From an uncultured bacterium (GTDB lineage Bacteria; Auribacterota; JACPWU01): DNA of 32,000 bases. Position 1 is the first letter of the stretch. Each line of letters starts with the position of its first letter. A program made the translations under genes and the position numbers. The notes beneath the pieces are model-generated. The model saw nothing but the letters and a program-made list of their open reading frames with translations. It was not told the DNA's origin and did not search any database. Shown here piece by piece: positions 2 through 27,853 of this stretch. The DNA lies in the NCBI GenBank assembly GCA_964640155.1, contig CAZXEQ010000003.1, positions 104,189-136,188 of the forward strand, read 5' to 3'.

Positions 2-1000
2 CTACATCCACTAAGAGCCTTAGGAGTGCTTTCAGATGGGCGTATTGTGGCGGGTGGAACATGGGGGAAAATGACAGTTTATAATCCTAGTGATCCTAAG
101 GATGAAGGAGAAAGCTTAAGCGGTTATGATGGGACGATTCATGATATTCAAGTTCTTCCAGATGATTCCATTGTTGTCGTAGGCGCTGGAGGATATGTTA
201 AAAAGTTTGAACTCAAAGCCGGGTCAACTCCGCAATCTTTGGGTCGATATTATCAGTATGATGGTAGACAAATTATTTATAAGACAAGGCGTTTATCCAA
301 TGGCCATTATGTAGTTGTTGGAGAAGGTGGGGCTATTAAAATTTGTGATCCCAATTATCCAGACAGTGAACCTATTCTGGTCGGCCATTATGGAAAAGAT
401 GTTCACGCTCTTGAAATTTTGCCGGACGATACCATTGTAGTGGGTGGAGATGGAGGAGAAATTTTAGCTTTTGAACCCAAAGAAAATGCAAAACCTCATA
501 AATTTGGAAATTATGGGAATGATATTAACATGATTCGCTATTCACCTGCGGATGGAAAGATTTTGATAGGTGGAAGAAATGGAGTGTTAGCGTTTATTGA
601 AAAAGAGATGGTAGGAGTGATGTGCAGTGAAAAAGATTTCGTAAGCCCTATGGGTAAAAAATATTCTTTAGATCAAGTTTCTACAGATCAAGCCAAAGTG
701 TTCATTCCAATTCCTCATGTCACCGATGAAAATTTCTCAAGTGCAGTCACTCGCTTGCAAGCTGAGATTAAAACAGCAGAAGGGGCTGAAAAGAAGAGAT
801 TAGCTGAGGTTCTCATGCATGTTTTGAGGAAAGGGAAACCTGCCCAAAGAAAAGATGGATCCCCGATAGATACACTCGGGGATGACAAACACTCTGTACC
901 ACTGTCATTCCCGAAGGCTTTTATCGGGAATCCATTAGAAGATAAAAAATGGATTCAGTCCCAACAAAAGAAAGAAGAGCTAGGAGTGGGAGATGTTTTC
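2..1000 (+). repeat. Super-repeat module 1 (partial): 5 visible propeller blades plus linker 1, ending at GDVF
   Basis: Blades follow the pattern [AV]L.VL.DG.[IL]V.GG..G.[IL].[IVF][YWF][DN]P, e.g. VLSDGRIVAGGTWGKMTVYNP and ALEILPDDTIVVGGDGGEILAFEP. Linker 1 contains ...TDENFSSAVTRLQAEI... and ends LGVGDVF (GDVF at 989-1000). Confidence 0.75.
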
Positions 1001-4000
1001 AAGACTGAAGGGGTGTTTGTAGAAAGAGTTTCTATATCAGACCGATCACGCACAATAACAACTCAAGCTGTCTTACCCGATGGACGTATTGCTTATGGTT
1101 TTGCAGATGGGTGGGTTGAATTGTGGGATCCTAAGAAACCCCATTTGGGATTTAAAAGAATAGGACAATATGCTGTAGGAAGAGGCAATCAGGAAATCAC
1201 GGTTTTAAAAGTTGTGGCAGGAAAATTATTAATTGCTGGGAAGGCTGGATATCTTGAAGTGTGGGATCCGGAACAGCCTACTCAAAAACCTTGGTGTTTG
1301 GGAGATTACAAAGAAGAAATTTATGCGATTGAAGAATTAGATGGGGAAATTTTTGTCGGTGGGAAAGGAGCAGTTATTCGATATTGGACTTTGGAAGATT
1401 TAAAAAATAAAAAAGAGATTCAGGGAGAAGTTTTGGGACAGTATGGGCATGAATTTAGCAGTGTTTTTAGTTTTCTTGTTGTGGATGGAAAACTTGTAAT
1501 AGGGGGAGGTGTTCAACTAGAATTTTGGGATTCACAAGAGCCAGAGAAAAAAATTCAAAGTACAGCAATGCATGAAGGAGCCACACACGCTTTGCAATAT
1601 TTAGATGGGAAAATTGTTGCTCTTGATTCAAGTGGGCATATCCGTTATTGGGATAAATCTTCTTTGTATGCTCAAGAATCCCAAGTCCCTTATCCTATTG
1701 GAGAGTATGGTATGAAAGCTGAAGCAATGAAGGTTTTGGATGGGAAGTTGTATGTGGGAGGATATGGAGGAGAACTTAAAGTATGGGATCCAGAGAGCTC
1801 ACGAAAAGGTCTGCACAATATATTTCAGTATCAAAATGATGAAGGAGCAAAACCCGGAACAATGAATTATATTACAACTATTTCATATCTTGAAATAGTA
1901 AACGGTCGTTTGTCTATCATAGGCTCCTCTAACGGTGTTGGTGGGGTTACTCTCTTAGAATTTTCTCCAACCGGTGTGGTGAATAGCAAGAATACTTTTA
2001 GATCTCTAAAATCAGGAGTTGAACATCCCCTGTCAAAAATTTCTTCTGAAGAAGTGACCGTTTTAACCCCAGCTCCTCAAGTGGATCATGAAAATCTATC
2101 TAAAGAGGTTGAATCTCGCCAAATGAAAATGAGAACGCTGCAGGAGCAGGATTTTAAAGGAAGAACAGATTTGGCATTGGAGTTGGCCTATATTGCGAGA
2201 GAACATGGGGATAAGGCAGAGTGGATTGAGATAGAAACAAAGAAGGAAGATTTGAAAGTAGGAGAAATATTTGAAGCAGAAGTTTGTGCGGGGATAGAAA
2301 GACAGTTTTTACATCCATATCCAGGTAAAATACGTGCTCAGGCGCTTCTTCCTAATGGAGAGTTGGTGGTAGGAGGGGAAAGAGGAGAGTTGTGGATTTA
2401 CAACACTGGAGACCTTAATGCAATCCCAAGAAAGTTTAAATTTCGTTATCCGGCAGAAATTCATGCCATTAAAGTTTTAAAAGATGGACGTGTGATTGTG
2501 GCCGGGAAAGCTGTTGATTATATAAGCAAAGTATGGATTTATGATCCTATTCATACCGACGCAAGACCTATTCAAATTAAACATTATTCTGGAGGAGATG
2601 TGTATGCTCTTGAGCTTTTGAATAATAGTTTGGTTGCCATTCAAGAGAAAAATGAAATTAAAATTTATGATCCAGACAAACCAGATCAGGAGGCTAAAAA
2701 GTTTTCTTCTCCTTGTGCAGGTGGTGCTGAGATCATGAGATTGTTGAAAAATGGTTTATTAGCTGTTGGCAAGGGAGCGTCAGGAGGGGATGTTGAAATT
2801 TTTGATCCTGCTCATCTGGAAAAACCTTCTAAAGAGTTTGTTTATCGCTATGGAGATGTTGCTGCCATTGAATCTCTCAATGAGAAAGAATTAGCTGTTG
2901 CAGGATTGACAACGGGAGGATTTGGAAAAATAAAAATTTATAATCTTGAAAATTACGACGCAGAACCCCAAGAATTTTCTTTTCCTTATCCTGGACAAGT
3001 TTATGCTCTTCAAGCATGGGGGGATGATTATTTGGTTGCAGCAGGAAGTTCTGGTGTTGTTCTTCTCTATGATAGATGGGATTTAAAGAAGGATCCTGTT
3101 GAATTAGGACATCTAGATATAGAAGAAAAACAAAAACTCAAAAGAATCATTTTTTCATTACAAGTTTCACCTGAAGGACAACTATCGGTGGCAGGTGGCA
3201 ATGGAATCGTAAAAATTTTTGATTTAAAAAATAGAGGTATTGTCAGAGATCAAAACTCTTTTGTCTCTATAGCTACCGGAAAAGTTCATCCTCTAGACAG
3301 TGTTGTGTCGGACGCTGTAACTGCTCGCTCTATTTTGCCTTCCATTAATCCTGAAAATCTTGCTGATGAAATAAAACGTCGAGAAAATGAGATACGCACT
3401 ACAAATGATGAGAGAGAAAAAACAAGATTGGCCAAAGAAATAGAATTTTTGGTTAAAAAATATGGAAAAGAAATGAAATGGTTTGAAATGGAATCAGAGA
3501 AAGAAAAACTGAGAGAGGGTGATATTTTTAAAACGGAAGTAATGAATAAAACATTTCTTGATCCGGACGGTATTGGTTGTGAGGGTGTTGCCTTGCCTAA
3601 TGGTCAAATAGTGATAATAAAGCTTAGAGAATTAAGATTTTATAATCCTAATCACCCTGAAGCGCCTATAAAGACAATAAAAACAGAAAAAGCAATAAAC
3701 AGGATTGAGCTCTCAGCAAATGGGAATCTTGTTCTTTATGAGGCAGGAGACGTTATTGAAATTTATGATCCCATCCAGTACACCCGCTTAAACTTAATAC
3801 AGTTTCCCGGGAGTGCAGATGTTGATGATTTGCAATATTTGCCTGACGAAAGATTAATAGTTCGTGAGAGAAGAGGGGATATTTTAATTTATGATCTTCA
3901 AAATATTGAAAGCGAACCCTATCATTTGAAAAGAGGATATCCATTTTCTTCCGCCACGCAGGTTTTGCCGAATGGGCAGCTTTTGGTTAGAGAGAATAAA

Positions 4001-7000
4001 AAATTAAGGCTATATCAGTTACCTTCTAGAGAGGTGATGAGAGCGCGCGTCGAAAGCATGTTAGCCTGGCACGCATCCAAATGGAAGACACCCATGCCTG
4101 AATGGGATGACTCACTCACAGAATTAGGTAAGGATGATTCTATGATGGCATGTGTTATTTTACCTAATGGCAATATTGCTATAGGTACATATGAAGGACA
4201 GATCAAAATTTATGATATTCAAAATTTAAAAAAAGGGGATGTGCCTCCTCCACCTACGAGATTTGCTTATTTCAAAGGCAAAATTATAGAAATGGCCTTG
4301 TTGTCTCCTACACGTTTAGTTGTCGCTAGAGAAAATGGTTTATTGGAAATGTATGATTTAACTCGACCTGACTTACCTCCTAAACCTCTAGGGAATTTTG
4401 GCGGTGAAATACTTTCCCTTTCCGTGTTGAAGGATGGGAGGTTGATGGTTACGGGCGAGGGAGGAAAAGTCGAATTTCTGGAATTCAGTATAACCGGGAT
4501 TCTATTGCGAGATAAGACGTTTCGTTCTTTTGCAACAGGGCAGACTTATGATGTGAGCAATATCGTTTCTGACGCTGTGATGACGTTGCATCCAATACCC
4601 TACATAGACCCTGAAAATTGGAAAGAAGAAGTAGAAAAACGCATTCATGAAATGAAATTGGCTCAAAGTGAACATGAAAAGAAAAGATGGGGTTTGGAAG
4701 CAGTGCATATTGTTAGAGAACATGCAGACAAAATGGAATGCGATAAGAAAGATCTTAAGCCCGGTGATGTATTTGAGATGAGAGCCATGATTCAGCAAAA
4801 AAATGATTCAAAAGACACGGTTTTTACCCAAGCGATTCTTCCAGATGGGCGTGTGGTATATGGTGATGAAGGAGAATTAAAAATTTATCATCCAGATGCT
4901 CCTCATGAATTATTCCAATCTATTCCGTTCTCTCAATTTGACTCTGTCCAGGATTTGCAAGTTGTTGAAAACAAACTTTATATGATAGATCGAAATGCGA
5001 ATCCCTATCTTTATCTTTATGATTTTTCTGAATCAGGAAAGGGAGTTCAAAGAGTAAAGCACGAGTTTAATAATGGAAAAATCTATGGTGTTTGGTCTCT
5101 GAATGGAAAGATTTATGTGGCGAATGATAAAGGAGAAATTTATGTTTGTGATTTCTCCGAAGGTCCACTTAAATTTAAACCTTTGGAAAATGGCAAAACA
5201 GAGATGTTTGTAGACTCTATGCAATGGTTGAATGGAAAGCTTTATGTGAGTGGACATACGGAAGATGGATCAATGGTAGCTATCAGTATGGGTTTAACTA
5301 CAACATACAGACATGTGAAAGTATATGATCCTGATCATCCTCAACAAGGATTTCGAGATATTAAAGTTATGGGCAAGAATGATGTTTCTTTTTCAAATTT
5401 ACAAGTTTTAGATGGGAAAATTTATATGGGAGTCTCTGGCAAAGGATTGACAGTCTTTGATCCTCAAAAACCAGATGATGGATTTTTGCTTTTGAATGGA
5501 TGCGAATATCGTCATTCAATCAGACATGTACGCGTTATGAATGGAAAACTTGTAATGGCTGGAGAAAAAGAAATTTTGATTTATGATCATAAAAATCCTT
5601 CTCTGGGACTTCAAAAGTTAGCTGAAATTACAGAGTTTATTTTTAGCTTAGAGGTATATGACAATACAAGAATTGCTGTAGGGTTAGGTAATCAACAGAT
5701 TCTCTTAAAAATAGATGCGATTGGTATGGTGATGGAGGGTGAAAAGTTTGTAGATGTGGAAAGTGGTAGAGAGTATGCATTACAGGATGTTTGTGGGGAA
5801 CGTGTAGCGGTACATTTGTCTATACCTGCGATTACATCTGAAAACTTTGTGGATGAGGTGAAGAGACGGCAAGCGCAGATGGTGACAGAATCGGATGAAA
5901 GAGAAAGAAGGTGTTTGGCGGAGGAGTTGAAGAGGGTTTTAGGGAAAGATTTTAGTGAAAAGGGATGGACTCCAGAAGAGAAAGTAAAAGAGGCTTTGAT
6001 GCCAGGAGATGTGTTTAAAGTAGATGTAATTGCGAAGACATTGATTGAAGGAGATGGAGTAGATATTTGGACGGGTATTGTTTTGAAAGATGGTCGAGTG
6101 GCTGTCGCAAAAGGAGATAAAGTATTTATTCATAACCCACAAAAACCGGAGGCTCACCCCATAGAGATTCCAGCTACTCATTTGGTCAGGGCGATAGAAG
6201 AGTTACCTGATGGTCGGCTTGTTGTTTCAGGGGTGTCAGAAATGGTGACAATACACAATACTCTCACACCAAATCGCTATGTTCAGTTTACGCATCTTTA
6301 TGGGGATGAAGTTAATGCCATTAAACTTTTACCCAATGATCTTTTGGCTGTAGCTGGAAGAAGTGGAAAAATTCTTATCTATGATCTCAAAGATTTAACA
6401 AGAAGGCCTTACGAATTAAAGAAAGATGATAATCGAACCATTTTCGTCTTAGAGGTTTTACCCAATGGAACTCTTTTTGTCGCGGACTACATGGGAAGGG
6501 CAAGTATTTATTCAATTCCAGGCCAAGAAGTTTTTAATCAGCAGTCGATGGAGTCTCAAACTACACCAGATTATTTAATTGCTGAGTTAGAAACTTATGG
6601 GATACCAAAATTGGGAGGTTTAGAGTGCACATCCATTCACTCTTGCGCGCTTTTACCAGATGGAACTCTAGCACTGGGAGGAGATGGTGGGGAGATTTTT
6701 ATTTATGATGTTTCAAAAGTTAGAAAAGGTGAGAGGCCGCCGAAACCTAAAAGACTGATAAATTTTGGTGGCAATATTAGAGCGATGACTTATTTATCTC
6801 CACATCATCTTGTTGTGGCTGGAGCAAGTGGTGCAGTAAAGATTTATAATTTAAACCATCCAGAACTTCCTCCTCGAGAAATATTTAGTTATGGAAATTG
6901 GGTTAAGACATTGAAAGTATTGGAAGATGGTAGGTTATTGATAGCAGGTTTTGGAGGGGAAGCCGTGATTTTAGAATTAAACGTGTTGGGACTAATGACA

Positions 7001-10000
7001 GGGGATAAAACTTTCGAATCTCTTCAGACAGGGGAGAGTTATCGATTGGATGATGTTCAAAGTTCAAAGGTTCAGAGATTAGAGGTGAAGGAAACAGTTT
7101 CTAGAAATGTGGTGTCATCGCGAGTCCCCCGACGTAGTATCGGGGGACGTGGCGATCTCGTAGATGGGATTGCTTCGTCAGCCGATAAATCGGCTTCACT
7201 CGCAATGACGGAGTCAGAGCAAAAAACTAAAATCACAGAAGCTTTAGATGCTCCATTCACTCCAAAATATCCTAGCCTACCTTTTTATTTTGCTTTAGGT
7301 GAGGATGGAATTGTTTATCTCAATTATCAGGGACGATGGTATCCGACGAAGCATAAAGCAGTCACCAGTCGCCAGTCTTCAGTCGTCAGTGAAAACAACA
7401 GTGAGACGATTTATTATGAAACTGTCATTCCGGCGAAGGCCGGAATCCAAACCTCTCTGGATCCCGGATCGCGCTCGCATTTAGCTCGCTTGTCCGGGAT
7501 GACCAAACAAAAAGTTCGACTTCTGCAGCTTTCTGACATTGTGCATCCATTGGAAAGAATGGATTCCCGATTGAAACCTTCGGGAATGACAGGAGGAGAA
7601 CGGACACTTATCCCTCGGGATTTTTTGATGGAGACAGAAGTGTTGAAGGGTGTAGAGGCTTCTGTTTTGAAGGCGTTTCAAAGAGGTTGGGCTGTTGATT
7701 TAGAAGGTGGACCGGGTGGCGGAAAAACAAGTATGGCCCGTGAAGTGGCTCTTCTTCTGGGACTTCCTTCCTATGTTTTTCAAATGCATGGTCAAAGGAC
7801 ATTATCAGATTGGATTGGGGGATATAGCGAAGATGGCAAAGGTCATTTAACTAGGAACAATCTTCCCAATGATGAAGGTCATTTCCGACAAGAATTGCTA
7901 GAGGCCATTACGCATGGGGGTGTTTATGTTGTAGATGAGGGCGCCGTTGGAAAAAAAGGACGTGAACTTTTAAATTGGTTGGCTCCATTGTTAAGAGCTT
8001 TAAGGACTCGTGGTGATGGACGTAAAATTTTTCTTCATGAATTTCCAACTTTGGCGAAAGAATTAGGTATAGAAACCCCCCTGGAAATATCTTTAGATTT
8101 TCATTTGGTGATCACGAATAATAAAGCGGGTGAAACTCAAGCCCGTGAAGTGATGAAAAGTGAGGTAGCAACAGAAGTAGTATATGTTGATGTAGATGAA
8201 GATGATGGGCCTGAAACGTTGCAGAGGTTATTCCTTCATTTTACGCAAGATTTAGGGGTTGATGCAACCATAAAAGAAAATCTTGCAAAGCATTTAAGTG
8301 AATTTCATTGGGCTTTGAAAGAGAGAATTGGAAAAGATTTGGGGGTCGATGATAAAGATAGACATTATCTTTCTAAAAGAGAAATTCGTAGGGCTGCACG
8401 TCTGATGCGTTGGGCTCATTCTCAGAACTCGGAAGCGGATCCCGTTTTTGATTTTTATGTATCTTTAAGAATTGCCTATGAATCCATGTTTACTCATGCT
8501 TGGGAAAAAGATGAGGTTGAGAGAATTTTAAGAGAAAAAATTGAGAATATAGAGTCGGGCAGTTATGAGCGTGTGACCAAGAAATTTGACACTTTAAAGG
8601 AAAAAGCATTTGGTAAAACCGTCAGATCTAAAATTGTGACAGGCCCGGAATTAGAAGAGGCTTTTTTAACAAAAATGAGTATGGAGGCCGGAGAACCGGT
8701 GCTTCTTTTGGGGGAATTAGGGGCACGTGTTTCAGATGTTGTTCGTCGAGTCTCTGAAGAATTAAATGCAGAAGTAAATATTATTGATGCAGATCCTCAA
8801 CAATCTCGTCAGGAAATTCTGGGAGGGCCTTTCCCAGATGTTCGACAAGGAAGTAGTAAAAATATTGCACATATCTTGGGTAAGTTGGTTCAGCATTTGA
8901 TGACCAAAGAACAGATGGAAGCTTTAGAAAGTGCAGGAGAAAAACTACACCCTCAAGTTTTGTGGATTCGAAATATTGATTTATGGAGTGAAGATTTAAG
9001 AACCGCCTTAAATGGATTTTTGGAGGATGGATATATTCGTTTAGAAAAAGGTGACGGTACGATAGAGACTTATTATCGTCCCTCTCATGTTCACATCATT
9101 GCAGACATGGGTTCAGAGTCCATACAAGATTTTTCAAGCGCCTTTTTTAATCGCTGGGTGAAAATAGGAATTTCTAGAGAGAATCCTCCTGAAGACTGGA
9201 TTTATTCCAAGCCAGAGGTTTTGGGTATGCTGAGCAAGAAAGCAGAAAAACAGGCGGAACAGTTGATTGTTGCCGTTAGGGATGCAAAAGTTCTTTTGCC
9301 GATGGAGGGAGGTTTTTATCGTTTTAATCCAGAGCTTAATTTGGAAAATTTTCCTCAAAGTCTCAAAGGCGAAAAAATTTATACTCAATTCTTGAGATCT
9401 TTAAAAACTAAAAATCAACTTTCTGATTTTGAAAAAGTATTGGTGAATCGTTTTGGCATGAGCCTTCGAGAAGCGGAGGACTTGACCCGATTGTATGTTT
9501 CTTTGATGGATATTGATTCAGCTCAAGGGGCGCAGCGCTGGAAGGGAGAAGCCCATTATGGTTTTGGCCCCACTTTGTTCTATGCTTTAGCAGAATCGAT
9601 TCAAATGGCCAAACGTGAAGATTCTAAAATTTTAGCTTTAGAAAGACAATTAAGAGAACAGTATGACGTAAATTTTGAACATGTTTTGATTCATGGACCT
9701 CCTCCGGGTTCTTCAACAGATGCAATCGATCTTTATAAAGCTTATATTTCTGCTTTAAAGAAAATGATGGCAGAAGAAATTTTAAGAATTATTGGTACAA
9801 GATTAAAACCTTTGGATCGTCCTGATTTTGAACAACTTCTTCATTCAACATTAGATTTGGAAGTTCCTCCTGGGCTCAATACTTCTGTTCATACCACGAC
9901 GGGTACACTGGAAGGTCAGGTTACTCGTATCGGCAATGTTGCTCTTCAGGCTAGAGAAGGGGCTAAAGGCCCTCTAGAAGTTTCTAAAGATCATCGTGTT

Positions 10001-13000
10001 AGGTACGGTGGCCAATCTGTAGAAGAGGGCTTGGCTGTTCTGGCTCGTGCTTCACAGCTTGGAAAGGCTGTAGCTTTGGTGGGTGAACCGGGTGTCGTAA
10101 AAACTACTTTAACGGGACATTTTGCAGAAATTACAGGGAGGAAATATTATAAGTTTCAATCTCATAAAAAAAGTCGTGTGGAAAATCTTACATTTGAAGT
10201 AGAGCAGGAAGCAGATGGGACTTTCCATAAGAAAATTCAAGAGCTTTATCAATATCTTCGCGAAGGAAATGTAGTCATTGATATTGATGAAGCGAATGCT
10301 CAACCCGAAATTCTTTGGCTTTTAGGTCCTGTCTTAAGAGGTGAAGAATGGATTTATCCCATTTTTCCAGGAGAGCCTCCTTTTAAAATAGGCAGAGGAG
10401 TACAACTTGTATTTACCTATAATCCAGCTCATTTTTCAGGTCGAAGTGAAATGGATAAGCGCATTTTAGATTTAATGATTGTGGCATGGCTTGAACCTCC
10501 TAAAAAAGAAAATAAACCAGCTATTACTGAAACTTTCTGGGGTGTTTGGGCTGAAAAAGTTGCAAAAGTTGAAGAAGATAAGTTTCCTCAAAGATTTGAA
10601 GTTCATGTACCACCGGTTGAAATGCCGGCTGATTTAGCAAAAGATGTTGGTTATGATCATGCAAGGATTCATGAAACGATTACTTCTTTTGATCAAACTA
10701 CGAATCAAACAGATAAAGTAGACATTTTCTTGAAAGTTTTACCTGAATACTTTTTAGCTTTGGCTAATCGGGATGGAGCTAGATATGATCAAGACATGCT
10801 CCGTATGGCTGCTATTTTAGATGGATTTTTAGCAAGGTCAGGTCAGGAAAGCAGAATCGTTAGAGATCTTGAAGTTCTACAAAAAGAATATCATCGCTCT
10901 TCTCCCGACAAAACTCGATTACGCTACGGCATATTAGAATTTAGAAAACATTTTTTAAAATTTGATCGGCATTTGATTATTTTTATGTTCACTCCCAAAA
11001 ATCGTACAGTTCCATTTTTGCGCATTTATCCCAATAAGATTTTAGATCGAATCACCCTTTCACATAAAGAAGGATGGGAAACCAGTGGAGAAGCTCTGGT
11101 GATTGAAGGACATGGATTGGAGAAAGGAAATAAGATGGGCTATTTTGATGGAGAATATGCTCTCGTCAATACCCCTAAGACAGGAGGCGTAAAGCATATT
11201 CAAACAGAATGGACGGCCCACCATGAATTAGGGCATCGAAATGATCAAGCCCCGCATAAAACAATTCCTAAAAATATTGAAATGAACTCTATGCTCAGTC
11301 CACTTATGCATTCTAGAGAAAAGAAAAATTATATTGAGGAAGAATTGGCTGGTTGGGTGTCGAGTGGACAGAACAATTCTTATTATACTCAAGCATCAAA
11401 AGGAATATTGAATGGGCTTGTACAAAGATGGTGGGAGTTGAATAAGACAACAGGGAGACCTCCTCAAATTGATGATGTATTTGCAGATGCTGATATTAAA
11501 GCAGTATTAGATTTGGTTCTCACGATGGATGAAGCGACATTAGAAAGTTTAGCTCTTTATCTTTACGATCATCCTAGATATCTAGAAAGCGGCCAAAAAG
11601 GGGCTTATAAACAACGCGTGTCTACGGGAACTGCAGAGCAGGGGGGTGGAGAAGAAGAAATTATGGAAGGAGTGGATGGAGAAATTGAAGTCGATGTTGA
11701 AATGGTGGAAGGAGGAGCCACTCCGGAAGTAAATGTATCAAACCCAGAAGGTTCGGATACGGTTCAAGAAACGAGTGGTGAAAATCTAACTCCTGAAATG
11801 GAAGCTCGTCGCCAAAAAGATTTAGAAAAACAACATCGCAAAACTGAAGACCTGAAGAAAAAGTTAGAAGAAGAAACAAAAGCCTCTGGAACGGAATACG
11901 ATCAAATGATCATGGGAGGACAAGGTCAGGCTGAAAGCATTTTTGACAGGATATTACGCGCGTTTCGATCTAAACGTAAAACAATTACCATTCGTTTAAG
12001 ATCCGGTTTAGAAGTAGATCCTATTGCTCATATGCTCAGACTCTATAATCGATTTATCAAACGTGAAGAAGTTTTTGACATGCAAACACATGCTGTTTCT
12101 GTTTTGATGGATTTTAGCGGAAGTTTGGCTCCTTTTAAGAAACAGATAGCCTATGCGGTGCGGGCGATTGGAGATAATTTTTGGAAATTGAAATGGGCAG
12201 CTTCTCGCCATTTTTATTTTGATTTATCGTTTTATACAGGAGCGGATCCCGTTACTATGATGGAAATGGGCAGGCTTTATTCAGAATCAGAATGGAAAGA
12301 TAATTGTGTCAAAATGGGAAGACAAATCGGAGATGGAGACAATAATTTACTCAATGCTCTGAGCAAAAAATTGAAGGATTTCGTAGGGTCAGATGTAAAA
12401 GCGGATGTACGCCGGGCAAAGCTTAAAACTTTGATTTTGTTTACGGACGGTCAAGATACTGCAATTATCGGTGGTGATAAACCCATACCTTCAAGAGAAT
12501 TTCAACAGGAGTTAAATCGGTATCGCGCTTTAGGAATAGAAATTTTTGCGATCGGATTTGGAGCAGGGGCAAAGCCTGTTGAAGCTTTTCATGGAAAAGG
12601 ACAACATTTTATCAAGATCGGTGCCCAGCGTCCTTATGATGTACCGGAAGTCATTGCAAAAATTATGGAAGCAAGATCGCGTGGATTAGGAATGATTCCT
12701 GATGGAGATGTCACTCATTTTTTTGGAATTGATGAGAAGGGTGCTCCTCAACTTACGCCAGAAGAAACACAAGCATCACCACAGTCTTTTTCTTCGTCTT
12801 CGCCAAGCTCTACTGGGGGAGGCTCATTTGCACGCATGCTTCCTCCTGAAGCCAGTGTTGCGCAAATGGTTGTAAGTGGTTCAAAAGTCATAGAATCTTT
12901 GCCAGGTTCAGAACGCTCAGGAGCCACTCGTGTTATCGTTGATGCCATAGCTGAAAAAATGAGAGCTGCTTCGGATTATGCTCATAGTGTTGTAAGGGGA

Positions 13001-13063
13001 CTGCCTTCGACTCAATCTAGAAAAGTATCCTCAAGAGAAGTTGTTTTAGATCAGGCTGCTTAG
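2..13063 (+). CDS. Giant multidomain protein, 5'-partial (>4,350 aa visible): >=6 tandem WD40-like 7-bladed beta-propeller modules, 3 AAA_5 (MoxR/midasin-type) ATPase modules plus one vestigial P-loop, acidic linker, C-terminal VWA/MIDAS domain
   Basis: One frame is open from nt 2 to the TAG at 13061-13063. The track start (GTG at 26) lies inside a propeller blade: nt 2-25 translate LHPLRALG, continuing into VLSDGRIVAGG, which matches the blade consensus. The ORF therefore continues upstream of the window. Motifs read from the translation: Walker A GGPGGGKT (7706-7729), Walker B VYVVDE (7922-7939), Walker A GEPGVVKT (10082-10105), Walker B VVIDIDEA (10271-10294), MIDAS DFSGS (10110+2000 region, exactly 12110-12124). 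Confidence 0.9.
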   Translation, partial: LHPLRALGVLSDGRIVAGGTWGKMTVYNPSDPKDEGESLSGYDGTIHDIQVLPDDSIVVVGAGGYVKKFELKAGSTPQSLGRYYQYDGRQIIYKTRRLSNGHYVVVGEGGAIKICDPNYPDSEPILVGHYGKDVHALEILPDDTIVVGGDGGEILAFEPKENAKPHKFGNYGNDINMIRYSPADGKILIGGRNGVLAFIEKEMVGVMCSEKDFVSPMGKKYSLDQVSTDQAKVFIPIPHVTDENFSSAVTRLQAEIKTAEGAEKKRLAEVLMHVLRKGKPAQRKDGSPIDTLGDDKHSVPLSFPKAFIGNPLEDKKWIQSQQKKEELGVGDVFKTEGVFVERVSISDRSRTITTQAVLPDGRIAYGFADGWVELWDPKKPHLGFKRIGQYAVGRGNQEITVLKVVAGKLLIAGKAGYLEVWDPEQPTQKPWCLGDYKEEIYAIEELDGEIFVGGKGAVIRYWTLEDLKNKKEIQGEVLGQYGHEFSSVFSFLVVDGKLVIGGGVQLEFWDSQEPEKKIQSTAMHEGATHALQYLDGKIVALDSSGHIRYWDKSSLYAQESQVPYPIGEYGMKAEAMKVLDGKLYVGGYGGELKVWDPESSRKGLHNIFQYQNDEGAKPGTMNYITTISYLEIVNGRLSIIGSSNGVGGVTLLEFSPTGVVNSKNTFRSLKSGVEHPLSKISSEEVTVLTPAPQVDHENLSKEVESRQMKMRTLQEQDFKGRTDLALELAYIAREHGDKAEWIEIETKKEDLKVGEIFEAEVCAGIERQFLHPYPGKIRAQALLPNGELVVGGERGELWIYNTGDLNAIPRKFKFRYPAEIHAIKVLKDGRVIVAGKAVDYISKVWIYDPIHTDARPIQIKHYSGGDVYALELLNNSLVAIQEKNEIKIYDPDKPDQEAKKFSSPCAGGAEIMRLLKNGLLAVGKGASGGDVEIFDPAHLEKPSKEFVYRYGDVAAIESLNEKELAVAGLTTGGFGKIKIYNLENYDAEPQEFSFPYPGQVYALQAWGDDYLVAAGSSGVVLLYDRWDLKKDPVELGHLDIEEKQKLKRIIFSLQVSPEGQLSVAGGNGIVKIFDLKNRGIVRDQNSFVSIATGKVHPLDSVVSDAVTARSILPSINPENLADEIKRRENEIRTTNDEREKTRLAKEIEFLVKKYGKEMKWFEMESEKEKLREGDIFKTEVMNKTFLDPDGIGCEGVALPNGQIVIIKLRELRFYNPNHPEAPIKTIKTEKAINRIELSANGNLVLYEAGDVIEIYDPIQYTRLNLIQFPGSADVDDLQYLPDERLIVRERRGDILIYDLQNIESEPYHLKRGYPFSSATQVLPNGQLLVRENKKLRLYQLPSREVMRARVESMLAWHASKWKTPMPEWDDSLTELGKDDSMMACVILPNGNIAIGTYEGQIKIYDIQNLKKGDVPPPPTRFAYFKGKIIEMALLSPTRLVVARENGLLEMYDLTRPDLPPKPLGNFGGEILSLSVLKDGRLMVTGEGGKVEFLEFSITGILLRDKTFRSFATGQTYDVSNIVSDAVMTLHPIPYIDPENWKEEVEKRIHEMKLAQSEHEKKRWGLEAVHIVREHADKMECDKKDLKPGDVFEMRAMIQQKNDSKDTVFTQAILPDGRVVYGDEGELKIYHPDAPHELFQSIPFSQFDSVQDLQVVENKLYMIDRNANPYLYLYDFSESGKGVQRVKHEFNNGKIYGVWSLNGKIYVANDKGEIYVCDFSEGPLKFKPLENGKTEMFVDSMQWLNGKLYVSGHTEDGSMVAISMGLTTTYRHVKVYDPDHPQQGFRDIKVMGKNDVSFSNLQVLDGKIYMGVSGKGLTVFDPQKPDDGFLLLNGCEYRHSIRHVRVMNGKLVMAGEKEILIYDHKNPSLGLQKLAEITEFIFSLEVYDNTRIAVGLGNQQILLKIDAIGMVMEGEKFVDVESGREYALQDVCGERVAVHLSIPAITSENFVDEVKRRQAQMVTESDERERRCLAEELKRVLGKDFSEKGWTPEEKVKEALMPGDVFKVDVIAKTLIEGDGVDIWTGIVLKDGRVAVAKGDKVFIHNPQKPEAHPIEIPATHLVRAIEELPDGRLVVSGVSEMVTIHNTLTPNRYVQFTHLYGDEVNAIKLLPNDLLAVAGRSGKILIYDLKDLTRRPYELKKDDNRTIFVLEVLPNGTLFVADYMGRASIYSIPGQEVFNQQSMESQTTPDYLIAELETYGIPKLGGLECTSIHSCALLPDGTLALGGDGGEIFIYDVSKVRKGERPPKPKRLINFGGNIRAMTYLSPHHLVVAGASGAVKIYNLNHPELPPREIFSYGNWVKTLKVLEDGRLLIAGFGGEAVILELNVLGLMTGDKTFESLQTGESYRLDDVQSSKVQRLEVKETVSRNVVSSRVPRRSIGGRGDLVDGIASSADKSASLAMTESEQKTKITEALDAPFTPKYPSLPFYFALGEDGIVYLNYQGRWYPTKHKAVTSRQSSVVSENNSETIYYETVIPAKAGIQTSLDPGSRSHLARLSGMTKQKVRLLQLSDIVHPLERMDSRLKPSGMTGGERTLIPRDFLMETEVLKGVEASVLKAFQRGWAVDLEGGPGGGKTSMAREVALLLGLPSYVFQMHGQRTLSDWIGGYSEDGKGHLTRNNLPNDEGHFRQELLEAITHGGVYVVDEGAVGKKGRELLNWLAPLLRALRTRGDGRKIFLHEFPTLAKELGIETPLEISLDFHLVITNNKAGETQAREVMKSEVATEVVYVDVDEDDGPETLQRLFLHFTQDLGVDATIKENLAKHLSEFHWALKERIGKDLGVDDKDRHYLSKREIRRAARLMRWAHSQNSEADPVFDFYVSLRIAYESMFTHAWEKDEVERILREKIENIESGSYERVTKKFDTLKEKAFGKTVRSKIVTGPELEEAFLTKMSMEAGEPVLLLGELGARVSDVVRRVSEELNAEVNIIDADPQQSRQEILGGPFPDVRQGSSKNIAHILGKLVQHLMTKEQMEALESAGEKLHPQVLWIRNIDLWSEDLRTALNGFLEDGYIRLEKGDGTIETYYRPSHVHIIADMGSESIQDFSSAFFNRWVKIGISRENPPEDWIYSKPEVLGMLSKKAEKQAEQLIVAVRDAKVLLPMEGGFYRFNPELNLENFPQSLKGEKIYTQFLRSLKTKNQLSDFEKVLVNRFGMSLREAEDLTRLYVSLMDIDSAQGAQRWKGEAHYGFGPTLFYALAESIQMAKREDSKILALERQLREQYDVNFEHVLIHGPPPGSSTDAIDLYKAYISALKKMMAEEILRIIGTRLKPLDRPDFEQLLHSTLDLEVPPGLNTSVHTTTGTLEGQVTRIGNVALQAREGAKGPLEVSKDHRVRYGGQSVEEGLAVLARASQLGKAVALVGEPGVVKTTLTGHFAEITGRKYYKFQSHKKSRVENLTFEVEQEADGTFHKKIQELYQYLREGNVVIDIDEANAQPEILWLLGPVLRGEEWIYPIFPGEPPFKIGRGVQLVFTYNPAHFSGRSEMDKRILDLMIVAWLEPPKKENKPAITETFWGVWAEKVAKVEEDKFPQRFEVHVPPVEMPADLAKDVGYDHARIHETITSFDQTTNQTDKVDIFLKVLPEYFLALANRDGARYDQDMLRMAAILDGFLARSGQESRIVRDLEVLQKEYHRSSPDKTRLRYGILEFRKHFLKFDRHLIIFMFTPKNRTVPFLRIYPNKILDRITLSHKEGWETSGEALVIEGHGLEKGNKMGYFDGEYALVNTPKTGGVKHIQTEWTAHHELGHRNDQAPHKTIPKNIEMNSMLSPLMHSREKKNYIEEELAGWVSSGQNNSYYTQASKGILNGLVQRWWELNKTTGRPPQIDDVFADADIKAVLDLVLTMDEATLESLALYLYDHPRYLESGQKGAYKQRVSTGTAEQGGGEEEIMEGVDGEIEVDVEMVEGGATPEVNVSNPEGSDTVQETSGENLTPEMEARRQKDLEKQHRKTEDLKKKLEEETKASGTEYDQMIMGGQGQAESIFDRILRAFRSKRKTITIRLRSGLEVDPIAHMLRLYNRFIKREEVFDMQTHAVSVLMDFSGSLAPFKKQIAYAVRAIGDNFWKLKWAASRHFYFDLSFYTGADPVTMMEMGRLYSESEWKDNCVKMGRQIGDGDNNLLNALSKKLKDFVGSDVKADVRRAKLKTLILFTDGQDTAIIGGDKPIPSREFQQELNRYRALGIEIFAIGFGAGAKPVEAFHGKGQHFIKIGAQRPYDVPEVIAKIMEARSRGLGMIPDGDVTHFFGIDEKGAPQLTPEETQASPQSFSSSSPSSTGGGSFARMLPPEASVAQMVVSGSKVIESLPGSERSGATRVIVDAIAEKMRAASDYAHSVVRGLPSTQSRKVSSREVVLDQAA
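859..931. repeat. Two 8-bp-stem palindromic hairpin units lying in frame inside linker 1 of the giant ORF
   Basis: ATCCCCGA(859-866)/TCGGGGAT(876-883) and ATTCCCGA(907-914)/TCGGGAAT(924-931), both perfect inverted repeats read directly. They encode ...SPIDTLGDDKHSVPLSFPKAFIGNP..., a ~30-aa stretch with no counterpart in linkers 2-5. Confidence 0.7.
1001..2272 (+). repeat. Super-repeat module 2: 7-bladed WD40-like propeller plus linker 2
   Basis: Seven blades, each ending in W/Y-D-like dipeptides (VELWDP, LEVWDP, IRYWT, LEFWDS, IRYWDK, LKVWDP, TLLEF). Linker: GVVNSKNTFRSLKSG...DHENLSKEVESRQ...LKVGEIF (GEIF at 2261-2272). Confidence 0.75.
2273..3529 (+). repeat. Super-repeat module 3: 7-bladed propeller plus linker 3
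   Basis: Seven blades (LLPNGELVVGGERGELWIYNT ... SPEGQLSVAGGNGIVKIFDL). Linker: GIVRDQNSFVSIATG...NPENLADEIKRRE...LREGDIF (GDIF at 3518-3529). Confidence 0.75.
3530..4774 (+). repeat. Super-repeat module 4: 7-bladed propeller with a ~40-aa insert between blades 4 and 5, plus linker 4
   Basis: Blades LPNGQIVII..FYNP ... LKDGRLMVTGEGGKVEFLEF. Insert: PSREVMRARVESMLAWHASKWKTPMPEWDDSLTELGKDDSMM. Linker: GILLRDKTFRSFATG...DPENWKEEVEKRI...LKPGDVF (GDVF at 4763-4774). Confidence 0.75.
4775..6016 (+). repeat. Super-repeat module 5: 7-bladed propeller plus linker 5
   Basis: Blades with an [DN]GK[IL][YV] signature as in module 2 (LNGKIYVANDKGEIYVCDF, LDGKIYMGVSGKGLTVFDP, MNGKLVMAGEKEILIYDH). Linker: GMVMEGEKFVDVESG...TSENFVDEVKRRQ...LMPGDVF (GDVF at 6005-6016). 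Confidence 0.75.
6017..7110 (+). repeat. Super-repeat module 6: 7-bladed propeller with a blade 4/5 insert as in module 4, and a truncated linker 6
   Basis: Blades LKDGRVAVAKGDKVFIHNP ... LEDGRLLIAGFGGEAVILEL. Its last three blades align with module 4 (KGERPPKPKRLINFGGNIRAMTYLSPHHLVVAG vs KGDVPPPPTRFAYFKGKIIEMALLSPTRLVVAR). Linker 6 starts normally (GLMTGDKTFESLQTG). The helical ...EN...E..R...GD[VI]F half is missing and the hairpin-rich spacer stands in its place. Confidence 0.7.
7125..7587. repeat. Cluster of five palindromic hairpin units (same stem family) lying in frame between the propeller array and AAA-1
   Basis: Perfect stems: TCCCCCGA(7125-7132)/TCGGGGGA(7140-7147); ATTGC..AGCCGAT/ATCGGCT..GCAAT (7169-7206); ATTCCGGC(7427-7434)/GCCGGAAT(7439-7446); ATCCCGGA(7461-7468)/TCCGGGAT(7493-7500); ATTCCCGA(7563-7570)/TCGGGAAT(7580-7587). 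The region is visibly more GC-rich than its surroundings and is open in several frames on both strands (track ORFs 7072-7260-, 7299-7484+, 7425-7607-, 7481-7681-). Confidence 0.7.
7640..8420 (+). other. AAA_5-type ATPase module 1 (intact Walker A/B) of the giant protein
   Basis: GGPGGGKT (7706-7729), hhhhDE VYVVDEG (7922-7939), sensor-1-like VITNN, and a downstream lid helix LSKREIRRAARL. These match the MoxR/CbbQ/midasin AAA_5 pattern. Confidence 0.75.
8695..9175 (+). other. AAA-like module 2 with degenerate nucleotide-binding motifs
   Basis: PVLLLGELGARVS replaces Walker A (no GK[ST]). VLWIRNIDLWSEDL replaces Walker B. A C-terminal SSAFFNRWVKI resembles the AAA_5 '..A...RF..i' end. Probably a non-hydrolysing module. 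Confidence 0.5.
9692..9718 (+). other. Vestigial P-loop-like motif HGPPPGSST (possible remnant of another AAA module)
   Basis: VLIHGPPPGSSTD resembles hhhhGPPGxGKT but lacks the Lys. No Walker B is recognisable downstream. Confidence 0.25.
10028..10503 (+). other. AAA_5-type ATPase module 3 (intact Walker A/B)
   Basis: AVALVGEPGVVKTTL (Walker A 10082-10105), VVIDIDEAN (Walker B 10271-10294), sensor-1-like LVFTYNP, and terminal DKRILDLMIVAWLEPP. Confidence 0.75.
11641..11885 (+). other. Acidic D/E-rich segment followed by a K/E-rich helix, immediately upstream of the VWA domain
   Basis: GGGEEEIMEGVDGEIEVDVEMVEGGATPEVNVSNPEGSDTVQETSGENLTPEMEARRQKDLEKQHRKTEDLKKKLEEETK, read directly from the translation. 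Confidence 0.8.
12085..12680 (+). other. C-terminal von Willebrand factor A (VWA) domain with a MIDAS motif
   Basis: VSVLMDFSGSL (DxSxS at 12110-12124), LILFTDGQDT (~12431-12460) and IFAIGFGAG match the canonical VWA strand/MIDAS pattern. Confidence 0.8.
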
Positions 13064-20000: not shown

Positions 20001-20118
20001 GTCTGTAGCAGAAATGGCAGTAGCCGAGTTAGGTAGAGGTAGGGCAAACTTTTTTCAATCTGCTCAAAGAGGGTTGATGGAAAGAAGAAGTAGTTCTATT
20101 CTTGAACAAGCAGCTTAA
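17095..20118 (+). CDS. Large secreted/exported protein of unknown function (1007 aa); the N-terminal half has Tiki/TraB/GumN/ChaN-like GxxH-type motifs
   Basis: N-terminal signal-peptide-like MNTQMSCLYKKIVCLLVFPLVLTQAMG. TIFYIKDIHCN...QLVLVEGAQG (~17300-17430) and KAILIAGGFHSQGLMEKLKKRGISCIAI (~18481-18560) resemble the paired '..H' / 'vvvGa.H..G...L...G' motifs of that superfamily. The C-terminal ~500 aa has no recognisable motif except a tail shared with the giant ORF. Confidence 0.7.
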   Translation: MNTQMSCLYKKIVCLLVFPLVLTQAMGSPSLEENSQENSTSTDLSEIYFPSKIGVVTDSYQSTKNQTTIFYIKDIHCNLEGQLNISKMIEELSKKQRIQLVLVEGAQGKVQTDLLGCFPDSKIRKKVSRKFLAKGFISGCEYLAISKFNKIPIHIYGIEDEQLYLKNYYFFKEVYEKASDTNQFMNVSKIFIQRLKRKVFNKKLLKVDHDWKEYQEGKLALVKFVKTLSREEWNNRASPNLVKLLKILSVINQKNPSLLEKEHRSFIQRLSQILSADQTQVLIKLILKKRLSKISDEEYFSRLKNILPSNHITRLRNQFSVLFGVFDLHRFLKEKSEKLALELEDAVDLLFERLAKTEEEKNLLNLSLKLETLEKALTLTLSRKEFEKEGQNFDLDQFIQHLESLYKKQSDNFSVNKIDFLWMKKMKGLVESGKSFYRLALKREDQMVQNALQKIKEEGVQKAILIAGGFHSQGLMEKLKKRGISCIAIMPILKKRDEGHLYLERMLSQNINLKFIQNFSISSLSVLDLLSDTASNDDDRTEFLRSFFHYMVTFYGADSLDDEETVIHRWRQQVIALHSELLLDFNQVVESLLFLAKTIALGQREIVHVLKDSLGNQKKMLQMKVILSFLYREQLSVYDEIKLKIDHPSLIAYMTQLEESHYITNRFGVWEVSDDTRNDRDSTDVSATADLLGEDNILAESDSGMGVAYRINEGRAISERERLEEVFSILSNFCKAKPRIPWIQIQTDHRGKYLYFCGSRILSITPKTFLRDAAVSFFIRDADHVEIRKGGVSYILGTTGTMDILEDDISTVSHAKTLLRRQVQRLRLIHEDKIQIRNYWEAFCRYFQDKASEGSPYRHAIVAFFIDEILKNLSRQAPPEILGYALVVLDQLREKILELVTEKEEEGNFENQASFRYVIRFCGYSLLGYTQYRFFIPMESLDQTIAPITQVTATLLESLLNEPQIARTSSVAEMAVAELGRGRANFFQSAQRGLMERRSSSILEQAA

Positions 20119-27451: not shown

Positions 27452-27853
27452 ATGAATGAAGCGATTCGGATTTTACCCGATCTTCAATTCAGCATTCTTT
27501 GCGATGATGTTCGCCGCGAACATAATGGAAAGTTAATCCTTCTAGGTCTTTTTGAAACCATTGGAGCAAATCAATTTCCTGTTTCTCATCCTACGCTTTT
27601 TGTTGTCAATCGATGGTGCAATGGTGTCGGAGAATTTAAACAAAATACCGTGATCAGACGCCCAGATAATTCTGTTTTGGCAGAGGATACCATTACGGTT
27701 GTAAAATTAGATGATTTGAAAGCAAAACACACGGTCATTGCACGTTTCAATAATCTTCGTTTTGATATTCCGGGTGAGTACGCTATTGAAATTCGTGTAG
27801 ATGGGGATGTTAAAATTCGATACCCTGTCGTTCTTGTGGCAAATGCGAAGTAA
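27452..27853 (+). CDS. Hypothetical protein (133 aa, predicted all-beta)
   Basis: ATG-initiated ORF, no recognisable motifs. Its stop overlaps the next gene's start by 11 nt. Confidence 0.5.
   Translation: MNEAIRILPDLQFSILCDDVRREHNGKLILLGLFETIGANQFPVSHPTLFVVNRWCNGVGEFKQNTVIRRPDNSVLAEDTITVVKLDDLKAKHTVIARFNNLRFDIPGEYAIEIRVDGDVKIRYPVVLVANAK

Follow-up and report, generated by a model that had tools for sequence, protein, structure and literature searches.

An array of seven predicted WD40-type propellers embedded in a giant bacterial AAA+/VWA protein

We have analysed a window of 32,000 nucleotides of DNA from an uncultured bacterium of the Auribacterota (positions 104,189 to 136,188 of contig CAZXEQ010000003.1). 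In frame 2 of its plus strand, a single reading frame runs uninterrupted from the edge of the window as far as a stop codon at 13061-13063. The product is identical to a full-length protein of 6,910 aa, here called P0006, from residue 2558 of that protein to the stop. Positions 2-7135 encode tandem units (n=6) of ~415-425 aa each, and the rest of the frame encodes AAA modules, a HExxH region, an acidic stretch and a C-terminal VWA domain. The genes downstream are housekeeping genes, and the gene for P0006 sits among lpdA, lipA and moeB. No operon partner bearing on its function was found among the downstream genes that were checked.

An earlier note, made from the letters of this DNA, had claimed six super-repeats, each a seven-bladed propeller with a linker. 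The number is right for the window, but not for the protein: it results from the window start, whose edge cuts the first propeller, and the whole protein has seven. For this first propeller, M1 (2-613; plus strand, as for all coding features below), the window holds the last five of seven blades, and two further blades lie upstream of it at P0006 aa 2485-2548. The propellers M2 (1001-1972), M3 (2273-3235), M4 (3530-4495), M5 (4775-5722) and M6 (6017-6988) follow, each with seven blades. Within window aa 1-2420, a blade HMM has found 40 blades, with seven in each of M2, M3, M4 and M6, six in M5, and five in the cut M1. The seventh blade of M5, VQDLQVVENKLYMIDRNANPYLYLYDF, was missed by the HMM and read by eye from the sequence, and another blade of this propeller has an internal insert.

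The claimed super-period of ~415-425 aa is borne out by BLASTP, a unit HMM and autocorrelation. Full-length BLASTP of unit against unit gives 22-33% identity with E-values of 1e-9 to 1e-60, and the HMM recovers the units from end to end (M2 scores 485 bits). In ungapped autocorrelation, peaks appear at lags of 42 aa (the blade), 415-427 aa (the unit) and 831 aa (two units), and the last of these is the strongest (z=6, above all shuffles). In addition, the linker motif G[DE][VI]F occurs at nt 989, 2261, 3518, 4763 and 6005, exactly as had been noted, and two extra matches lie inside blades at 1343 and 6689. That is, seven are observed while 0.15 are expected from 2,000 shuffles, the highest shuffle count being 3.

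The blade count of seven per unit is upheld not only by the blade HMM, but also by the model of M3, the unit chosen for modelling. AlphaFold2 predicts it with a pLDDT of 84.4 and a pTM of 0.79, and its 28 strands form seven groups of four. Foldseek matches this model to seven-bladed WD40 proteins with probability 1.0, and the target-normalised TM scores against G-beta, RACK1 and Doa1 are 0.72-0.78 (rmsd 3.2-4.7 Å). The N-terminal half of the window product scores 60.8 bits against Pfam PF00400 (WD40; cut-off 27), and the named propeller-specific Pfam families all remain below their own cut-offs. Searched against the PDB, the unit profile matches Utp12, WDR48 and G-beta at 1e-16 to 1e-18, in the propeller part only, and the Apaf-1 propellers at ~6e-14, with Rsa4/NLE1 far down the list at 2.5e-10. 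The blades end with [IV][YWF][DN], which is WD-like, and lack a regular GH dipeptide. Overall, each unit is predicted to be a closed seven-bladed WD40-type propeller.

A conserved segment of ~100 aa between the propellers, also described earlier, is recovered by a linker HMM. It is found five times at full length, as L1 (614-1000, window aa 205-333, 116 bits), L2 (1973-2272, aa 658-757, 128 bits, modelled with a pLDDT of 81-92), L3 (3236-3529, aa 1079-1176, 135 bits), L4 (4496-4774, aa 1499-1591, 121 bits) and L5 (5723-6016, aa 1908-2005, 131 bits). Its first half is found alone once, at aa 2330-2378 (6989-7135), where a beta tail covering only HMM positions 1-49 ends the array. L1, with 129 aa, comprises a beta tail, a helical hairpin and a GDVF strand, and exceeds the other linkers by ~33 aa. 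Where it is longer, two hairpin DNA elements of ~30 nt, with the ends GTCATYCC and GGRATGAC, are inserted in frame (nt 856-935). Three more copies of the same element lie in frame at 7422-7592; they translate as VIPAKAGIQ...SGMT and MDSRLKPSGMTGG, and are absent from the orthologue P0001.

The segment had been taken for a dedicated linker domain, whereas we find that it is better read as two appendages. The arrays of P0006, P0007, L003, L005 and L006 open with the part of the linker that matches the HMM from position ~41 onward, and those of P0006, P0001 and L005, where the end was detected, as well as L007 and L004, end with positions 1 to ~50. Since the C-terminal half of the linker opens arrays and the N-terminal half closes them, the linker would be the tail of one unit plus the head of the next. 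The head, a helical hairpin with one or two strands, has G[DE][VI]F at its end, and the tail is a C-terminal beta tail. In the M3 model, the first linker strand, GIVRD, completes blade 7 as its fourth strand, and some linker strands form only beside a propeller, but are absent from the linker copy modelled free. From the predicted secondary structure, heads and tails probably pack onto the propellers. L3 modelled alone (pLDDT 82.5) shows three short strands and a helical hairpin, is not UBL-like in this prediction, and has no match among PDB folds better than E 2.6; no Pfam or PDB relative was found for the linker sequence either. Nor do the propellers form free beads on a string, as had been suggested, because they constitute a ~3,100-aa insertion inside the 6,910-aa AAA+/VWA protein.

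Among the units, M4 and M6 are the closest pair (32.7% identity, E 1e-60 in BLASTP). In both, blades 4 and 5 are separated by an insert (44 aa in M4, nt 4016-4147; 41 aa in M6, nt 6512-6634), and both have P-rich loops (KGDVPPPPTR, nt 4232-4261; KGERPPKPKR, nt 6725-6754). Together with the lag-831 peak, these features support the M4/M6 type that had been proposed. For the M2/M5 type the evidence is divided, since the grouping has an NJ bootstrap of 89%, but BLASTP prefers M3-M5 (1e-25) over M2-M5 (2e-20). The units most alike stand two apart (i, i+2), here as well as in L005 (units 1 and 3), and this at most suggests that the array grew by duplication of multi-module blocks, as the earlier note had it. 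At the DNA level, neither a direct repeat longer than 32 nt nor a tandem DNA array is present in the array. The array is hence ancient at this level and not an assembly artefact, which agrees with the claim of old, diverged duplications of low DNA identity.

In the whole protein, the array lies between two AAA_5-type blocks, apparently of three modules each, which we call a to c and d to f. The order is degenerate-active-degenerate, array, active-degenerate-active. A junction motif, PFYFALGEDGIVYLNYQGRWYPTKHK (7280-7357), which is conserved in P0001, P0003, P0004 and P0005, leads into the second block. There, module d (7613-8350) carries the Walker A sequence GGPGGGKT and its profile matches Rea1 at E 1.2e-28, module e (8663-9250) is degenerate, with GELGARVS and no P-loop lysine, and module f (10013-10570) has the Walker A sequence GEPGVVKT. 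With the Pfam AAA_5 cut-off of 22 bits, modules b (31), d (26.5) and f (49.7) pass, while e, aligned to positions 1-125 of the 139 in the profile, stays just short of it at 20.4. Pfam does not match modules a and c, which are recognised only by phmmer cross-matches to e-type modules; a, c and e match one another at E<=1e-5. After the second block come the HExxH motif HHELGHRND (11219-11245), which is conserved in P0001 and P0002 and whose region in P0006 has no Pfam match, and then a stretch, read from the translation, that is D/E-rich and afterwards K/E-rich (11642-11887). The C-terminal VWA domain (12086-12730) has the DxSxS motif as DFSGS. It scores 21 bits with Pfam VWA (cut-off 23.8), its D, S, S and TD do not vary among 8 relatives, and its profile has weak PDB matches to integrin I-domains (E 0.0015). 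Read by eye, this domain seems to have lost the conserved MIDAS Thr to a replacement (GDGDNN). The N-terminus of P0006 is hydrophobic and resembles a signal peptide or anchor, a feature that one would not readily expect of a cytoplasmic ATPase. We regard this anatomy of the array and its host protein as highly probable.

When the AAA blocks are compared with the PDB, midasin stands out. Profile A2 matches Rea1 at 1.2e-28 and Mdn1 at 3e-19, and the next matches (Sec18, McrB, NorQ) are at 6e-4 or worse. NorQ, the sole MoxR-type ATPase that scores in the PDB search, is marginal at 6e-3. Profile A5 matches midasin alone (Rea1 1.6e-29, Mdn1 6e-27), which is likewise the sole match of a single-sequence PDB search. 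Judged by these searches, the AAA blocks are specifically midasin-like. Both blocks best match the same region of Rea1 (~1000-1360), so there is no position-by-position collinearity with the midasin ring.

Relatives of P0006 come from Auribacterota, Elusimicrobiota, Planctomycetia and Omnitrophota, that is, from independent assemblies of four phyla. Compared across orthologues, the family has 2 to 7 units per protein, and the relatives other than P0006 have 2 to at least 5. Within a protein, the units are 50-62% identical in the relatives versus 22-33% in P0006; those of L003 (50-58%) are near-identical by comparison. The number of blades per unit also varies, being, by eye, 5 and 6 in P0007 and 3 in P0004. 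We have scanned 1.84 billion representative proteins with the unit profile, and among the 150 matches listed only two extend into its linker part, namely P0006 itself and one Auribacterota protein. Database labels for family members are 'AAA family ATPase', 'MoxR-like ATPase' and 'hypothetical protein'. In the precomputed Pfam lists, P0003 and P0004 have a transglutaminase-like domain, PF01841, which looks, from the sequences, as if it occupies the position corresponding to HExxH here. Our literature search found no description of this architecture, a propeller array within an ATPase. The array grows by tandem duplication of whole units, separately in each lineage, and the old, diverged units of P0006 fit each having gained its own binding surface.

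Considering all these observations, our best explanation combines the above anatomy with a role of the array as a multivalent arm through which a remodelling ATPase binds its partners, and we hold the combination with slightly better than even confidence. The mechanism, taken by itself, is put forward tentatively and at somewhat less than even confidence. The six AAA modules would form one ring, as in midasin, and the array would be a long multivalent arm that uses its diversified propellers to bind a single protein partner or several. Bound partners would be held within reach of the ring and the VWA domain, where the ATPase could pull on or remodel them, and they might then be passed to the HExxH domain (transglutaminase-like in relatives) for cleavage.

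The same parts could also make up a single-chain conflict system for immunity or cell suicide, a reading that we consider rather unlikely. Here the diversified propellers would recognise molecules that derive from invaders, a role also ascribed to the WD40 arrays of Apaf-1, bacterial STAND proteins and MoxR-vWA ternary systems. Binding would switch on AAA/VWA and release the peptidase domain (HExxH or transglutaminase-like) as the effector. Such roles have been predicted for propeller-bearing vWA-MoxR systems (Kaur et al. 2020, PMC7159879). The peptidase-type domain is apparently swapped, being HExxH in P0006, P0001 and P0002 and PF01841 in P0003 and P0004, and swapping between relatives is typical of effector positions; the strong variation of unit number and sequence between lineages and the match of the unit profile to the Apaf-1 propellers point in the same direction. 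The surroundings speak otherwise: the window offers neither neighbouring defence genes nor a mobile-element context around a gene placed among lpdA, lipA and moeB, no Death, TIR, caspase or other known effector or adaptor domain occurs in the window or the protein, and the AAA modules are nearer midasin than NorQ in the PDB profile search.

It seems improbable to us that the array is only a structural spacer or scaffold, i.e., a semi-rigid rod that sets length and geometry with no specific ligand for each propeller, by spacing half-rings or the VWA domain, by building a cage or lattice through propeller-propeller contacts, or by anchoring to a membrane. Head and tail pieces that look integrated into the flanking propellers would stiffen the chain, the hydrophobic signal- or anchor-like N-terminus suits such a use, unit number can range from 2 to 7 with the remaining architecture kept, and a linker tolerates in-frame hairpin DNA elements. 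Near-identical repeats would suffice for a rod, however, as in L003, while P0006 has kept intact seven-bladed propellers at 22-33% identity, which fits functional specialisation better. To our knowledge, WD40 propellers serve as platforms for protein binding in practically every case studied. That the repeat stems from the assembly, is recent or belongs to a decaying pseudogene is favoured only by the general suspicion of long repeats in metagenome assemblies, and we put the probability close to nil. The idea is rejected by the DNA self-comparison, by a frame that stays open for 6,910 codons, and by the same architecture in independent assemblies from four phyla.

Among the closest known systems are MoxR-vWA-peptidase systems, whose predicted role as ATP-dependent remodelling or degradation machines (Zhang & Aravind 2012, PMC3495828) favours the binding-arm reading, and vWA-MoxR ternary systems with beta-propellers and variable effectors, for which conflict roles are predicted (Kaur et al. 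2020, PMC7159879). Like them, P0006 has helix-2-insert-clade AAA+ modules, a vWA domain, a peptidase-type domain and beta-propellers, and the PF01841 of P0003 and P0004 recalls the MoxR-vWA-TGL systems; in P0006 itself PF01841 was not found, and an HExxH motif apparently takes its place. On the other hand, MoxR-vWA systems are multi-gene and use homohexamers of single-AAA MoxR, whereas in P0006 several AAA modules are joined with the VWA in a single chain, and neither a separate MoxR nor a separate vWA gene lies in the 19 kb downstream of its gene. The ternary systems have a propeller of about four blades fused to the vWA protein, in contrast to up to seven complete seven-bladed propellers here.

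Tandem complete WD40 propellers in one chain are also found in Apaf-1, Gemin5, Utp12/Utp13/WDR3/WDR36, EML and Aip1. These have two propellers packed directly together, unlike P0006, in which seven, joined by ~100-aa tail-plus-head segments with a helical hairpin, form part of an ATPase. The array is among the longest of complete WD40 propellers in a single chain known to us. The giant RCC1-propeller proteins of Clostridia likewise have tandem complete propellers and grow by amplification (bioRxiv 10.1101/2023.11.21.568195). With unit numbers of 2 to 7 and identities from 62% down to 22%, the present family offers a series for studying how a propeller array is amplified and then specialised.

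Midasin shares with P0006 several AAA_5-type modules in one polypeptide, apparently six by our count here, followed by an acidic stretch and a C-terminal VWA-type domain with DxSxS. The differences are considerable. P0006 is bacterial, its AAA modules are split 3+3 by the ~3,100-aa propeller array, active and degenerate P-loops alternate, and a HExxH region (transglutaminase-like in relatives) is present. The last AAA module and the acidic stretch are only ~1,000 aa apart, while the helical linker of midasin has ~1,700 aa, and the acidic stretch itself is only ~80 aa. The VWA domain is not specifically midasin-like, its nearest PDB sequences being integrin I-domains. Collinear orthology with midasin is ruled out by the 3+3 split and by the match of both blocks to one Rea1 region. 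The midasin clients Ytm1 and Rsa4 are WD40 propeller proteins. The propeller units of P0006 have no special similarity to Rsa4/NLE1, and the removal of UBL-domain assembly factors from pre-60S by midasin is eukaryote-specific. With its MIDAS domain, midasin pulls WD40-containing assembly factors off pre-60S (PMC8837202). That the family is a bacterial single-chain six-AAA relative of midasin, with WD40 propellers, motor and MIDAS-type domain united in one polypeptide, is doubtful in our opinion. In a more specific form, the acidic linker motif P.P....EN may be an internal ligand of the VWA metal site, and the array may consist of built-in pseudo-substrates that are reeled in. Should the six modules form one ring, single-chain multi-AAA rings of the dynein/midasin type would not be purely eukaryotic, and the partnership of midasin with Ytm1 and Rsa4 could have a fused prokaryotic antecedent. 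The accepted picture derives six-AAA chains from MoxR at an early stage of eukaryote evolution (PMC3495828), and a bacterial family with a six-AAA-like layout makes this statement testable.

The giant gene lies in frame 2 of the + strand; its reading frame is already open where the window begins and runs to a stop at 13061-13063, and the opposite strand has no overlapping ORF of 100 aa or longer. Along its array, the motif G[DE][VI]F is found at nt 989, 2261, 3518, 4763 and 6005, with two extra copies inside blades at 1343 and 6689 (7 matches observed vs 0.15 expected from shuffles). Splitting the array product at these motifs gives six pieces (M1-M6, M1 being cut by the window edge), which we have compared pairwise. 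All of them can be aligned with each other over the full length by BLASTP, with 22-33% identity and E values of 1e-9 to 1e-60, the closest pair being M4 and M6 (32.7%, 1e-60). An HMM of the unit recovers each of M2-M6 end to end (406-519 bits), and ungapped autocorrelation gives a blade period of 42 aa, a unit period of 415-427 aa, blurred by indels, and, for two units, a sharp peak at 831 aa that lies above all shuffles. The super-repeat periodicity and motif positions described in the earlier note are thus borne out. So is its expectation of low nucleotide identity between modules, as no DNA repeat is longer than 32 nt and TRF reports no array. Together with the existence of a full-length protein of 6,910 aa, these DNA-level results rule out an assembly artefact or a pseudogene.

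The individual units are seven-bladed propellers of WD40 type. A blade HMM detects seven blades each in M2, M3, M4 and M6, six in M5, where the seventh can be read by eye, and five in the truncated M1. For structure prediction we have taken the segment from linker 2 through propeller 3 to linker 3 (window aa 658-1176), the input alignment comprising ten units, paralogues and orthologues together. The predicted model (pLDDT 84.4, pTM 0.79) contains 28 strands in seven groups of four and matches WD40 propellers of the PDB in Foldseek at probability 1.0. The best target-normalised TM scores to seven-bladed proteins are 0.72-0.74 for G-beta, 0.78 for RACK1 and 0.78 for Doa1, with rmsd of 3.2-4.7 Å. 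At the sequence level, the N-terminal half reaches 60.8 bits with Pfam WD40 (cut-off 27), and the unit profile finds Utp12, WDR48, G-beta and Apaf-1 in the PDB at 1e-13 to 1e-18, always through its propeller part only. Seven blades per unit of ~415-425 aa and a propeller fold, as previously proposed, are therefore what blade HMM, model and Foldseek all indicate.

We have further run an exhaustive profile search on 1.84 billion representative proteins, which returned 77,748 WD40-type matches. Of the 150 matches that were listed, only two reached the linker part of the profile with their best match: the full-length giant protein P0006 (6,910 aa, 2,765 bits) and P0007, a truncated protein from Auribacterota. 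P0006 is identical to the window product from residue 2558 to the stop. It contains the two M1 blades missing from the window and, upstream of M1, one further, divergent propeller (aa about 2010-2347), which brings the whole protein to seven propellers. The count of six super-repeats is thus correct within the window, but not for the protein. Just before this propeller, at P0006 aa 1830-2010, a half linker and a full linker stand in direct succession without an intervening propeller, possibly the trace of a propeller unit that has been lost. The part of P0006 that precedes the array comprises a signal-like N-terminus, a domain of ~550 aa and three further AAA modules. The hydrophobic, signal-peptide-like start is seen in P0006 (aa 1-40) and P0007 (aa 1-30), while the relatives P0003 and P0005 do not have it; it is odd for a multi-AAA ATPase.

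The window also holds, at 17095-20118 (+), an ORF of 1,007 aa with no Pfam match and a G+C content of ~31% vs ~38% around it. Its residues 60-509 align with P0006 aa 79-553, i.e., the N-terminal domain before the AAA modules (29% identity, E 6e-44). Both proteins start with a signal-like N-terminus and end in [IV]L[ED]QAA; the smaller one is perhaps a partner of the giant protein or a paralogue that has become detached from it.

Between the propellers, a linker HMM finds five full copies in the window and one first half. In the model, its N-terminal part forms three or four short strands and then an extended stretch with the conserved P.P....EN, and its C-terminal part forms two long helices arranged as a hairpin, followed by one or two strands ending in G[DE][VI]F. 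The first linker strand (GIVRD) serves as the fourth strand of blade 7. When the linker is modelled alone, the three short strands and the hairpin are kept (pLDDT 82.5) and the propeller-adjacent strands are lost. Broadening the HMM by one iteration has allowed us to detect the element in distant relatives; there, without exception, the second half of the linker (hairpin and strands) stands at the start of the array, and the first half (beta tail) at its end wherever this end is detected. On these grounds the linker is better understood as a composite, the tail of one propeller unit plus the head of the next, with the packing itself inferred. The recurrence of a conserved linker, claimed earlier, holds in this reading, but a pair of appendages describes it better than a dedicated linker domain. 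The linker has no Pfam match and no sequence relative in the PDB, and its best PDB fold match is at E 2.6. A UBL/beta-grasp domain of the type found as MIDAS ligand in Ytm1 and Rsa4 has been rejected, because the element is predicted to consist of three short strands and a helical hairpin, no PDB fold matches it and NLE1/Rsa4 are not enriched among the matches of the unit profile.

Linker L1, which follows the M1 propeller, is ~33 aa longer because of a pair of hairpin DNA elements. This element of ~30 nt has the ends GTCATYCCNG and CNGGRATGAC and an 8-bp stem, and occurs five times (0.28 expected) at window 856-935, 7422-7505 and 7556-7592, always in frame within the giant ORF. The first pair (856-935) is the one in L1; the remaining copies lie between the junction after the array and AAA module d, where they encode 'VIPAKAGIQ...SGMT' and 'MDSRLKPSGMTGG', peptides that are absent from the orthologue P0001. 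The peptides PLKLRGV... and LESRGDRGV in upstream P0006 also look repeat-derived.

Relatives of the giant protein come from MAGs of Auribacterota, Elusimicrobiota, Omnitrophota and Planctomycetia, and have generic names in the databases. Where no contig end truncates them, they measure 3,400-4,600 aa, and as far as the contig allows, they show the same order of AAA block, propeller units, junction and AAA block. The module number, which the earlier note suggested comparing, varies indeed: two units in L006, three in L005, four in L003, at least five in P0007 and seven here. Within one relative the units are 50-62% identical, and they are far less like the units of other proteins, so the arrays were amplified separately in each lineage. 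Identity between the units here does not exceed 32%, and for several of them the best match is in the Auribacterota protein; the present array is older and more diversified than those of the relatives.

As to how the array has grown, the proposed duplication of multi-module blocks is only suggested by the data. M4 and M6 form the closest pair and group with Auribacterota units at 97% in a bootstrapped NJ tree. The other proposed pair, M2 and M5, is joined at 89% (M1 with M2 and M5 at 95%), but BLASTP does not favour M2-M5 over M3-M5. The pair with the highest similarity is separated by one other unit in this protein (M4/M6) as well as in L005 (units 1 and 3), which hints at a two-unit block duplication or unequal crossing-over. 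Blade number also varies in the family according to reading by eye and blade HMM: units 3 and 4 of P0007 have five and six blades, and a three-blade unit, which cannot close a propeller alone, lies between linkers in P0004 (P0004/L002, from Elusimicrobiota).

On the 3' side of the array follow the conserved junction PFYF...HK, the AAA modules d, e and f, the HHELGH region, an acidic stretch and a VWA domain. Pfam AAA_5 scores are 26.5 bits for d (active), 20.4 for e (degenerate) and 49.7 for f (active), all of AAA_5 type, and 31 bits, above the cut-off, for module b upstream of the array in P0006. Its neighbours a and c have no Pfam match, and phmmer links them to each other and to e-type modules. 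The overall order is degenerate-active-degenerate, array, active-degenerate-active. In the PDB, midasin is the only match of the C-terminal half on its own, and a weak one, and the profile of junction plus module d reaches Rea1 at 1.2e-28 over ~390 positions and Mdn1 at 3e-19, with the next proteins at 6e-4 or worse. Midasin is also the sole match of the profile of the N-terminal AAA block (1.6e-29 and 6e-27). Because one and the same Rea1 region is the best match of either block, the ring positions show no collinear orthology with midasin.

The conserved motif HHELGHRND (window 11219-11245) is an HExxH with a Glu ~19 residues on, i.e., gluzincin-like; neither it nor the surrounding ~1.2 kb has a Pfam match. 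The relatives P0003 and P0004 carry a transglutaminase-like domain (PF01841) instead, apparently at the corresponding place. The VWA domain, which carries DFSGS here, has been verified as the C-terminal domain in eight members of the family. Its profile matches only integrin I-domains in the PDB, and weakly, so that an assignment as specifically the MIDAS domain of midasin is unsupported. In the VWA region at window 12068-12400, GDGDNN stands where several relatives have Thr (GGT or GT) and P0001 and P0002 have GN; on this comparison of residues, the metal site may be altered.

Based on the MoxR-vWA-TGL operon prediction (Zhang & Aravind 2012, PMC3495828) and on what is known of midasin, we propose that the six AAA modules would form a midasin-type ring and the propellers a long multivalent arm for the binding of partner proteins. 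Bound partners would then be pulled on or remodelled by the ring and the VWA domain, and may be cleaved by the HExxH or transglutaminase-like domain. Alternatively, the array could serve as the sensor in a conflict system of the kind that Kaur et al. 2020 (PMC7159879) predict, a role that we find possible but rather unlikely, or a structural spacer, which seems more doubtful still. Downstream of the giant gene lie lpdA, lipA, moeB and other housekeeping genes, and nothing in this neighbourhood decides between binding arm, conflict sensor and spacer. Farther on are a DUF6941 protein gene (27452-27853) and a 357-aa ORF without Pfam match (27801-28874), whose 53-nt overlap is probably due to the choice of start codon in a mechanical ORF list.

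In the literature covered by our search, which is incomplete, there is no account of a bacterial midasin-like or giant AAA/WD40 family with this architecture. Within this literature we have likewise found no description of the head-and-tail segment, of seven such units in succession, or of their insertion into a midasin-like bacterial protein between two AAA blocks of three modules each. WD40 propellers and propellers in tandem, on the other hand, are already known, as are AAA_5 modules and AAA-VWA coupling, and with the proposed binding arm, ring and VWA domain the MoxR-vWA-TGL prediction would here be extended from an operon to a single chain.
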